The notes below the pieces were generated by a model. It worked only from the letters and a program-made list of their open reading frames with translations, had not been told where the DNA came from and searched no databases. A stretch of 37,976 nucleotides of DNA from a virus (taxonomy: Duplodnaviria > Caudoviricetes). The stretch lies in the IMG/VR virus record IMGVR_UViG_3300037467_000854, positions 1 to 37,976 of that record; one strand, written 5' to 3'. Shown piece by piece: positions 19,718-21,325 of this stretch (position 1 is the first letter of the stretch; each line of letters starts with the position of its first letter). Both the position numbers and the translations under genes were made by a program.

Positions 19718-19758
19718 AGAATAGTGCCACTACTATTAAACGTCAATAGTGCCACGCT
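19718..19758 (-). promoter_or_regulatory. PL promoter with operators OL1 (19721-19733) and OL2 (19746-19758)
   Basis: Minus-strand TTGACG-N17-TATTCT; operators ATAGTGCCACTAC and ATAGTGCCACGCT match the OR dyads. Confidence 0.88.
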
Positions 19759-19810
19759 TATTTTGCGGGAATAATTTGTAACAGGCGTTCTGGAGGTATA
19801 CGAATCGCAC

Positions 19811-19839
19811 AAAAAAAGCCCGCGATTAGGCGGGCTTTT
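19811..19839. terminator. Rho-independent terminator (ends the cI/lipoprotein transcript; possibly bidirectional)
   Basis: AAAAAAAGCCCGC-GATTAG-GCGGGCTTTT stem-loop flanked by A and T tracts. Confidence 0.88.
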
Positions 19840-19857
19840 AGGCGGGGGTGCTACTCG

Positions 19858-20237: not shown

Positions 20238-20280
20238 TTGCGTCTGATCTTCGACCGGAATAAACTGTGTTTGCATACAG
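20238..20280 (+). promoter_or_regulatory. LexA-repressed sigma70 promoter with SOS box at 20265-20280
   Basis: TTGCGT (20238-43)-N17-TAAACT (20261-66); CTGTGTTTGCATACAG fits CTGT-N8-ACAG and overlaps the -10 and expected start site. Confidence 0.85.
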
Positions 20281-20404
20281 TGTTTCTGTTCCCCGCTGGG
20301 CAATCTGTTGCACCGAACCACAGAAACGGTTTCAGAAGTTCACAAGTCGTAGGATGATTCTTACTAACTTGTGTTAGGGTGAATTGACACCCCAAGGTGC
20401 AACG

Positions 20405-20611
20405 ATGCATAAAAAAACGAGAGAAGCTCTGGTCGGTTTATTCGATTTGGCAGACGAAGAGGGGAGACGCGCAATCATGGCCTTTGCAAGAGGCGAAGCG
20501 GCGCGGGCGCAGGCCCGTAAGCCCAAGCTAGTTCTTGTTACCAGTGGTCGGCCGGATGTCGGCCTGACTCAAGTCCGCGACCTGATCCCGGACAAAGTTC
20601 AACACGGTTAA
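20405..20611 (+). CDS. Putative SOS-induced antirepressor resembling the cI C-terminal domain (68 aa)
   Basis: First credible ORF downstream of the SOS promoter, AAGGTG RBS, ungapped similarity to the cI C-terminal domain; its 3' end overlaps the cI 3' end in antisense. Confidence 0.72.
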   Translation: MHKKTREALVGLFDLADEEGRRAIMAFARGEAARAQARKPKLVLVTSGRPDVGLTQVRDLIPDKVQHG

Positions 20612-20971
20612 CCGGGTTTTGGCAGGCAATTTGCCATAGAGCGAAACCAGCTCTGCCACATCACGCAAGTCGGGCGCCTGGTCTTGGGGCGCCACTACAA
20701 TCGAGATTCCCTTTAGCTCGGCCCCAAGCTCGGGGCTGATTTCGGTCGGCTGCACATTCAGTGCCCTGGCAAGCCTCCCTACGGCCCGCACATTCAGCGG
20801 GATCTTCCCGTTCAGGTATTGCCCGGCCGCACCCTGCGTTTTCCATCCACATTCCGAAGCAAGCCACTCCTGGGTTCGGGAGCGGTCCTCGGCTTGCCGG
20901 CGCAAAAATATCTCCTTCAGGCGCTTGGCGTCTTCCAGGCGCGCGCGGCTTAGCGGTTGGTTATTCGGCAT
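20528..20971 (-). CDS. cI: CI-like repressor without S24 peptidase domain (147 aa)
   Basis: Lambda CI-like N-terminal domain (EDAKRLKEIF...TQEWLA...QYLNGKIPLN...EISPEL); divergent from cro; short helical C-terminal domain only. Confidence 0.9.
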   Translation of the reverse strand: MPNNQPLSRARLEDAKRLKEIFLRRQAEDRSRTQEWLASECGWKTQGAAGQYLNGKIPLNVRAVGRLARALNVQPTEISPELGAELKGISIVVAPQDQAPDLRDVAELVSLYGKLPAKTRLTVLNFVRDQVADLSQADIRPTTGNKN

Positions 20972-21007: not shown

Positions 21008-21048
21008 ACAGTGCCACTGTTGACAAGAAATAATAGTGGCACTATGCT
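21008..21048 (+). promoter_or_regulatory. PR promoter with operators at 21008-21020 and 21033-21045
   Basis: TTGACA (21020-25)-N17-TATGCT (21043-48); perfect dyads ACAGTG-C-CACTGT and ATAGTG-G-CACTAT. Confidence 0.92.
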
Positions 21049-21079: not shown

Positions 21080-21325
21080 ATGCACCTAGCCGACTTCCTC
21101 AAAGAGCGCCGTCTTTCCCAGGACGAGTTCGCCCAACGCATCGGCGTATCCCAAGGGCTGGTCAGCCAGTGGGTGCGCGGCGTGACTCGCGTCACGTTGG
21201 AACACTCGCTCCACATCAAAAAAGTCACTCGAAACAAGGTCACTCCTCAGGACTGCGCGGACATGTACGTCGGGCCGGGAGACACCAAAGATAGCCAGGC
21301 CACGCACGAAATACGGCCTCACTGA
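21080..21325 (+). CDS. cro: Cro-like repressor (81 aa)
   Basis: XRE HTH (LSQDEFAQRIGVSQGLVSQW); first gene after PR. Confidence 0.9.
   Translation: MHLADFLKERRLSQDEFAQRIGVSQGLVSQWVRGVTRVTLEHSLHIKKVTRNKVTPQDCADMYVGPGDTKDSQATHEIRPH

Follow-up and report, generated by a model that had tools for sequence, protein, structure and literature searches.

Background

Many prophage repressors lack a self-cleaving domain, and their inducers are mostly unknown. The closest described system is AimX/AimC of the Bacillus arbitrium phage phi106, in which a LexA site precedes a 29-aa ORF that overlaps the end of the repressor gene. As presented in the preprint (bioRxiv 10.1101/2025.11.23.689978), heterodimer formation by AimX and loss of repressor DNA binding were shown, AimX was modelled in the position that the second C-terminal domain (CTD) would take, and a comparison with SinI is drawn. 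GfoA and GftA of Gifsy, Tum of 186 and AntC of N15 are also LexA-controlled antirepressors (PMC3121763). In the Gifsy type, as outlined in that article, a non-cleavable repressor of about 140 aa is inactivated by a small LexA-controlled protein whose gene sits in a dinI operon, at a distance from the immunity region. SinI of Bacillus subtilis is described as a small helical protein that mimics the oligomerisation domain of SinR. The CI dimerisation domain of phage TP901-1 corresponds to structure 6fxa, according to the source (PMC7250872); in contrast to the switch proposed below, TP901-1 is switched by the Cro-like MOR, which acts at the N-terminal domain.

The locus analysed here lies in a whole 38-kb virus record (37,976 nt, hereafter the window). 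Like the AimX-AimC-AimL module, it carries a short single-HTH repressor (cI) without autocleavage domain, a divergent cro-like gene and a small ORF that lies behind a LexA site (here a sequence match) and overlaps the repressor 3' end in antisense. An earlier, sequence-only reading of the locus had considered this combination undescribed for a prophage switch; AimX/AimC is that combination, with experiments. However, no aimR or aimP precedes the ORF, where a 125-aa lipoprotein-like gene is found on the opposite strand, and the LexA box is of proteobacterial type and is associated with a conserved leader hairpin. Sequence homology between ORF and CTD is detectable here whereas it is not known to be reported for AimX; conversely, the AimX heterodimer was shown while binding is here predicted from sequence. 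A non-cleavable repressor inactivated by a small LexA-controlled protein is also what is predicted here, but in the window the gene overlaps cI. The predicted mimicry is that of SinI-SinR, although the latter is a chromosomal biofilm switch without SOS control, and at E 0.1 none of 29 ORFs or 18 CTDs matches the Pfam SinI profile, which we take to be PF08671. The PHROG antirepressor family has no convincing match either (1 of 29 members, at E 0.041). The switch belongs to neither the arbitrium module nor the SinI family. What is new is an unannotated betaproteobacterial small-protein family without arbitrium genes, together with a covarying leader absent from Rfam; no description of such a proteobacterial family or of its leader was found in the openly accessible literature.

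Judging from the sequence comparisons below, the small gene probably encodes a LexA-gated antirepressor that jams cI pairing and works like AimX and SinI. This is supported by selection on the ORF, its homology with the CTD, the link to peptidase-less repressors, the modules retrieved by DNA pattern or RNA model and the phi106 precedent; the lack of cognate likeness, the pairs without box, the stand-alone copies, the many short repressors without ORF, the lower predicted stability of the conserved leader fold and a middling structural match to the dimerisation hook count against it.

Organisation of the control region

The control region is lambda-like (Table 1). The half-site AGTGCCAC occurs four times, on the PL and PR sides, and no copy lies near the small-gene promoter, so that autoregulation of the small ORF by cI was rejected. 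As the sequence-only reading had it, cI is peptidase-less: it matches only HTH_3/HTH_31 profiles and no S24. Its nearest relatives in named genomes come from Herbaspirillum, Ottowia, Collimonas and other Burkholderiales, suggesting a betaproteobacterial host.

Table 1. Features of the switch region and their positions in the window
Feature	Position	Strand	Remarks
Operator half-site AGTGCCAC, 2 further copies	19723-19755		PL side
Lipoprotein-like accessory gene, 125 aa	19858..20235	-	left of promoter, outside module; label from sequence reading
Putative -35 hexamer TTGCGT, rightward promoter	20238..20243	+	left edge of conservation with L003; 17-nt spacer
Putative -10 hexamer TAAACT	20261..20266	+	overlaps first bases of LexA box
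Putative LexA (SOS) operator	20263..20282		core CTGT-N8-ACAG 20265-20280; binding presumed
Conserved leader hairpin, ~46 nt	20282..20327	+	directly behind operator; covarying outer stem
Remaining 5' leader, two hairpins	20328..20404	+	Shine-Dalgarno-like AAGGTG 20394-20399
Small gene, 68 aa, candidate antirepressor	20405..20611	+	two helices, P-x-L-x-L-V, cI-antisense tail
cI-like repressor, 147 aa	20528..20971	-	HTH domain and short CTD, no S24 peptidase
cI C-terminal helix pair, predicted dimerisation hook	20561..20668	-	residues 102-137
Operator half-site AGTGCCAC, 2 copies, and PR-like promoter TTGACA-17-TATGCT	21010..21048		between cI and cro
cro-like HTH gene	21080..21325	+	divergent from cI; cII-like and replication genes come next

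The AlphaFold2 model of the cI CTD is a helix pair (pLDDT 84-96) that overlays the TP901-1 CI dimerisation domain (6fxa) with an rmsd of 1.2 over 35 residues, at a middling Z of 4.1 that lies within the range common for helical arrangements. The ORF and CTD models are both two-helix hairpins; for the CTD model, matches to 6fxa, NblA and the CapH CTD have Z 3.5-5.5. SinI/SinR are not among the 50 structural matches listed for the CTD model, which excludes nothing.

The lipoprotein-like gene has no family match. It is missing from L003, a relative with a 78% identical cI, where the PL region lies upstream instead and the promoter and box are kept. The possibility that the box serves this leftward gene was rejected, since L003 lost the gene and kept the box. 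In the window the gene appears inserted between cI and PL and is a candidate superinfection-exclusion moron, possibly carried on the cI transcript. A GC hairpin between A and T runs at 19810-19840 is terminator-like both ways.

Promoter and putative LexA operator

The promoter TTGCGT-N17-TAAACT and the overlapping LexA box are located where the sequence-only reading had placed them. The sequence CTGTGTTTGCATACAG at 20265-80 is the sole CTGT-N8-ACAG in the window; as the 38 kb contain a single box, no further SOS trigger is evident in the phage. At least one such motif occurs in 32 of 100 shuffles of the window, and the LexA box by itself is not beyond chance. The operator has 6 mismatches to the E. 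coli-type 20-mer consensus (2-7 in relatives). It is conservation that lifts promoter, box and ORF above chance: L003 retains the ORF and its leader as well as the -35 hexamer and the core of the LexA box. At the -10 position, the 36 modules examined (see below) carry TATACT (21), TACACT (6), TATGCT (4), TAAACT (2), TAGACT (2) or CATACT (1). The initial TA is thus present in 35 of the 36 and, unlike the final CT, did not belong to the search pattern.

The small gene

The 68-aa ORF announced behind this promoter is indeed present. Its predicted helices (residues 2-15 and 18-37) precede a P-x-L-x-L-V motif and its last 84 nt are antisense to cI. Compared with L003, codons 16-35 exhibit 16 base changes, 15 of them at third positions, and no amino-acid change; over the 41 non-overlapping codons, 17 codon changes are synonymous and 9 non-synonymous. 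This pattern of changes indicates that the small ORF is under purifying selection.

The window ORF matches no Pfam, PHROG or NCBIfam family. Word-based and HMM protein searches returned few relatives (3 proteins in one case, 5 in another), and one of the five is a 1145-aa repeat protein whose match looks spurious. Used as a query, the ORF found no relative in metagenome contigs or annotated phages and only chance-level matches in 401 genomes. Searches of the ESM Atlas gave nothing above 0.84, Foldseek on the ORF model gave no match, and PDB sequence searches with ORF and CTD profiles gave nothing below E 0.09.

Relationship between the small protein and the cI C-terminal domain

The sequence-only reading took the small protein for a copy of the repressor's own CTD on the basis of a 25-residue alignment. 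The alignment is found as reported (7 identities, BLOSUM62 score 30) and the two segments are encoded by separate DNA despite the antisense overlap. Taken alone, the pairwise match is marginal: P is 0.06 against the whole of cI and 0.007 against the CTD (2000 shuffles each), an equal or higher score is reached by 1 of 136 tiles from other window proteins, and BLASTP of the ORF against cI does not report the segment.

At the family level the relationship is clearer. Alignment of ORF and CTD profiles with hhalign gave 86.4% for a first set and 92.7% (E 4e-7) for 14 non-redundant pairs, against 0.14% for reversed CTDs, the ORFs and CTDs being aligned within each set from seeds placed by the analyst. 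The score of 24.6 bits compares with at most 10.3 in 40 column shuffles, and only register 0, of 17, has a positive mean score. According to these profile comparisons, the small proteins are family-level homologues of the helix pair at the C-terminus of cI, in the same register, namely the one originally proposed.

However, the likeness is not greater within cognate pairs than between non-cognate ones (permutation P 0.69 with 14 of 18 pairs kept; P 0.45 in a second test with 21 of 29 kept). The window ORF ranks its own CTD only 14th of 21, with a score of 22, while it scores 47, 46 and 43 against CTDs of other phages. The idea of a recent copy of its own CTD was rejected for this lack of cognate-specific likeness. 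Since an ORF resembles its own cI no more than it does other repressors, the small proteins appear from their sequences to be an old paralogous family of the CTD. A correlation does exist between the ORF and CTD similarity matrices (Mantel r 0.44, reached in 0 of 5000 permutations), but this indicates joint inheritance and does not demonstrate co-evolution, as shared ancestry alone can give it.

Homology predicts binding, not its sign. The small protein might therefore bind cI and stabilise repression or damp induction, and a phage protein that blocks induction, Hex of phage 434, reportedly exists. Such a role seems very improbable: a peptidase-less cI needs an inducer and not protection from RecA, and the LexA-controlled small proteins published beside such repressors activate lysis, as those sources describe them (bioRxiv 2025.11.23.689978, PMC3121763).

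In the family alignments, the two helices of many cI CTDs are preceded by a strand-like hydrophobic motif (LVYV, LQWI, ISIVV), while the small proteins place P-x-L-x-L-V after them, possibly reflecting a circular permutation relative to the CTD. Single-chain models have no strand.

A conserved structured leader

A conserved structured leader, missed by the sequence-only reading, lies between operator and ORF. Window and L003 share 107 of 123 leader positions without gaps, a better conservation than that of the ORF. The 5' leader has a fold z of -3.65 in the window and -3.24 in L003, and its hairpins differ between the two by three pair-keeping changes. The Shine-Dalgarno-like AAGGTG is predicted to be hidden in the lowest-energy fold, with GGUG fully paired.

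The window and a distant locus, L223, have two short sequence blocks in common behind the box. Among 83 sources the leader was found only in these two; it is absent from the six other box-bearing pairs and from every long-repressor locus of that set. The hairpin consists of a covarying outer stem, an invariant GUUC/GAAC stem, a CAC bulge, a CCC loop and a variable inner hairpin, with GUUCCCC / GAACCAC as invariant core. In 31 leader sequences, 67 cells have changed on both sides of a pair against 27.9 in shuffled alignments (0 of 500 shuffles as high), paired cells of the outer and inner stems amount to 82.5% against 69.9, and covariation is 0.379 against 0.177 (slid controls at most 0.19), with the qualification that the structure was named by the analyst, that the invariant core is partly imposed by the search pattern and that the statistics ignore kinship. 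An RNA model (R1), which matches the window at 20278-20335 by construction, retrieved on its own 2 of 151 genomes; each of them has a box, the ORF and a convergent cI, which is frameshifted in one case. Predicted stability in the window favours, by 8 kcal/mol, a longer fold that conceals the Shine-Dalgarno sequence over the conserved one, and the two may alternate. Rfam covariance models (C4 antisense, riboswitches, thermometers) gave no match over the window leader at E 10 and, in 10 related loci, two weak matches far below gathering score. A C4-type antisense RNA was rejected on this basis.

The leader being better conserved than the ORF, and the ORF overlapping or abutting the 3' end of cI in almost every paired locus, the SOS-released transcript might itself lower cI, by antisense pairing or polymerase collision at the cI 3' end, with the protein secondary. 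Moreover, the hairpin at ~19810-19840 is the sole leftward terminator-like one seen, so the cI transcript may cross the whole small gene. We nevertheless consider this explanation unlikely, given the purifying selection on the non-overlapping helices, the P-x-L-x-L-V motif kept across the family and the homology to the CTD. In phi106, as far as the preprint reports, a start-to-stop allele abolished the response while recoding of the overlap did not (bioRxiv 2025.11.23.689978).

Distribution of the family and of the module

The layout of operator, ORF and convergent short repressor, which the sequence-only reading proposed to look for in related prophages, recurs in dozens of unrelated phage loci. 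Family members exhibit two predicted helices followed by P-x-L-x-L-V and match no Pfam or PHROG family convincingly. Profiles built from family ORFs match 8 of 301 and then 38 of 401 genomes belonging to a single family. The latter search yielded 27 new loci: the ORF overlaps the 3' end of a short repressor in 10 of them and lies elsewhere in 17, which have no convergent repressor within 1.5 kb, are often tandem and carry no box.

Among loci found through cI, two independent short repressors (L111 and L182) have a convergent small ORF. Searches through cI gave 79 distinct repressors, of which 3 were dropped because their flanks were short; the short and long ones were compared with a profile built without the window, L003, L111, L182 and L221. 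At E <1e-4, a matching convergent ORF accompanies 4 of the 26 short repressors and none of the 50 long ones (Fisher P 0.012) and a box lies within 350 nt for 3 of 26 and 0 of 50 (P 0.037), in both tests with loci that are not independent and include near-duplicates. At E 0.05, one weak match is added on each side. The ORF is lacking in 22 of the 26 short repressors. Among 13 genome pairs found without using the box, 3 have a box and 10 have none within 1.3-1.8 kb; because of this low proportion, SOS control is to be regarded as a layer on the small-protein family and not as a fixed part or definition of it.

A DNA-only pattern, composed of the LexA core and the two leader blocks, retrieved 20 viral and 81 metagenome loci, 71 of them distinct (72 with the window). 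Within these 72, the ORF is present in 35 of 44 matches with a good box (no more than 7 mismatches to the E. coli-type LexA consensus), 3 of the 35 being in the profile by construction, and in 0 of 28 with a poor one. Five of the nine good-box matches without ORF appear to be real modules whose scores are weak or whose flank is short. In 35 of the 36 modules examined (33 of the 35 ORF-bearing loci and 3 misses), a convergent ORF ends in or beside the small gene, and 32 of these carry a CTD-like stretch. Unlike lambda-type self-cleaving repressors, the window cI and all 25 convergent proteins scanned lack S24, and 19 of the 25 match HTH families. Two other patterns were less selective: a first leader pattern gave 25 loci, all spurious but for the 2 relatives already known, and a LexA-plus-protein-motif pattern gave 32 loci with 4 real modules.

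The common stand-alone and tandem copies without neighbouring cI, together with the higher scores of the ORF against foreign CTDs and the lack of cognate likeness, might point to a hook mimic of broad range that acts chiefly on repressors of co-resident prophages or on other XRE regulators and not (or not only) on its own cI. Gifsy antirepressors are described as acting on non-cognate repressors (PMC3121763). This seems quite unlikely for the window, where the phage has no other evident SOS trigger; the joint inheritance of ORF and CTD also argues against it, although shared ancestry could suffice to explain the latter.

Proposed switch

For an antirepressor directed at its own cI, the following sequence of events can be proposed. 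Host LexA would likely keep the small-gene promoter shut, and DNA damage would release it so that the 68-residue protein is made. This protein would replace the second cI tail and jam repressor pairing, likely freeing the lytic promoters. The leader hairpin could impose a threshold at the post-transcriptional level and so prevent induction by leaky transcripts; this is the weakest step. From the arrangement as a whole we infer LexA binding, expression, CTD dimerisation, heterodimer formation and a need for the protein in induction.

A wider generalisation is tentative and somewhat doubtful: a widespread, unannotated betaproteobacterial prophage switch might use an ancient free-standing hook paralogue as a dominant-negative inducer, gated by LexA and by a structured RNA that sets the threshold, while stand-alone tandem mimics might let mobile elements induce one another.

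The candidate family offers dozens of ORF-repressor pairs in which binding and specificity can be tested. With it, the logic of AimX, known from Bacillus, would reach Proteobacteria that have no quorum-sensing genes at the locus, and there is added sequence evidence for a descent of such inhibitors from the domain family of the repressor itself. The leader provides a new candidate for a conserved RNA linked to an SOS operator, and the DNA signature retrieves whole unannotated modules.

Other arrangements

Several loci depart from the layout of the window. In L355 (1695-2211), the box, the leader and the small gene are intact, but cI appears to carry a frameshift that separates its HTH from its CTD. 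L255 and L300 exhibit truncated small proteins or repressors that end right after the helix pair; their overlaps are only 6-12 nt and the long antisense overlap is therefore dispensable. In L220 and L234, a palindrome ATCCCATAT(A/T)CATGGGAT replaces the LexA box some 60-90 nt before the small ORF, hinting at another regulator, and a similar palindrome lies upstream of the box in L355. Tandem arrays of two or three hook-mimic genes occur in L222/L228, L233, L237, L236 and L249, one gene being fused to a longer C-terminal part; they mostly lack a neighbouring repressor or LexA box and might be cross-inducers. Finally, about 548 nt past cI in L031, L039 and L109, a LexA box drives a convergent HTH gene and an 81-aa gene, which face a short cI whose CTD is of the same type.
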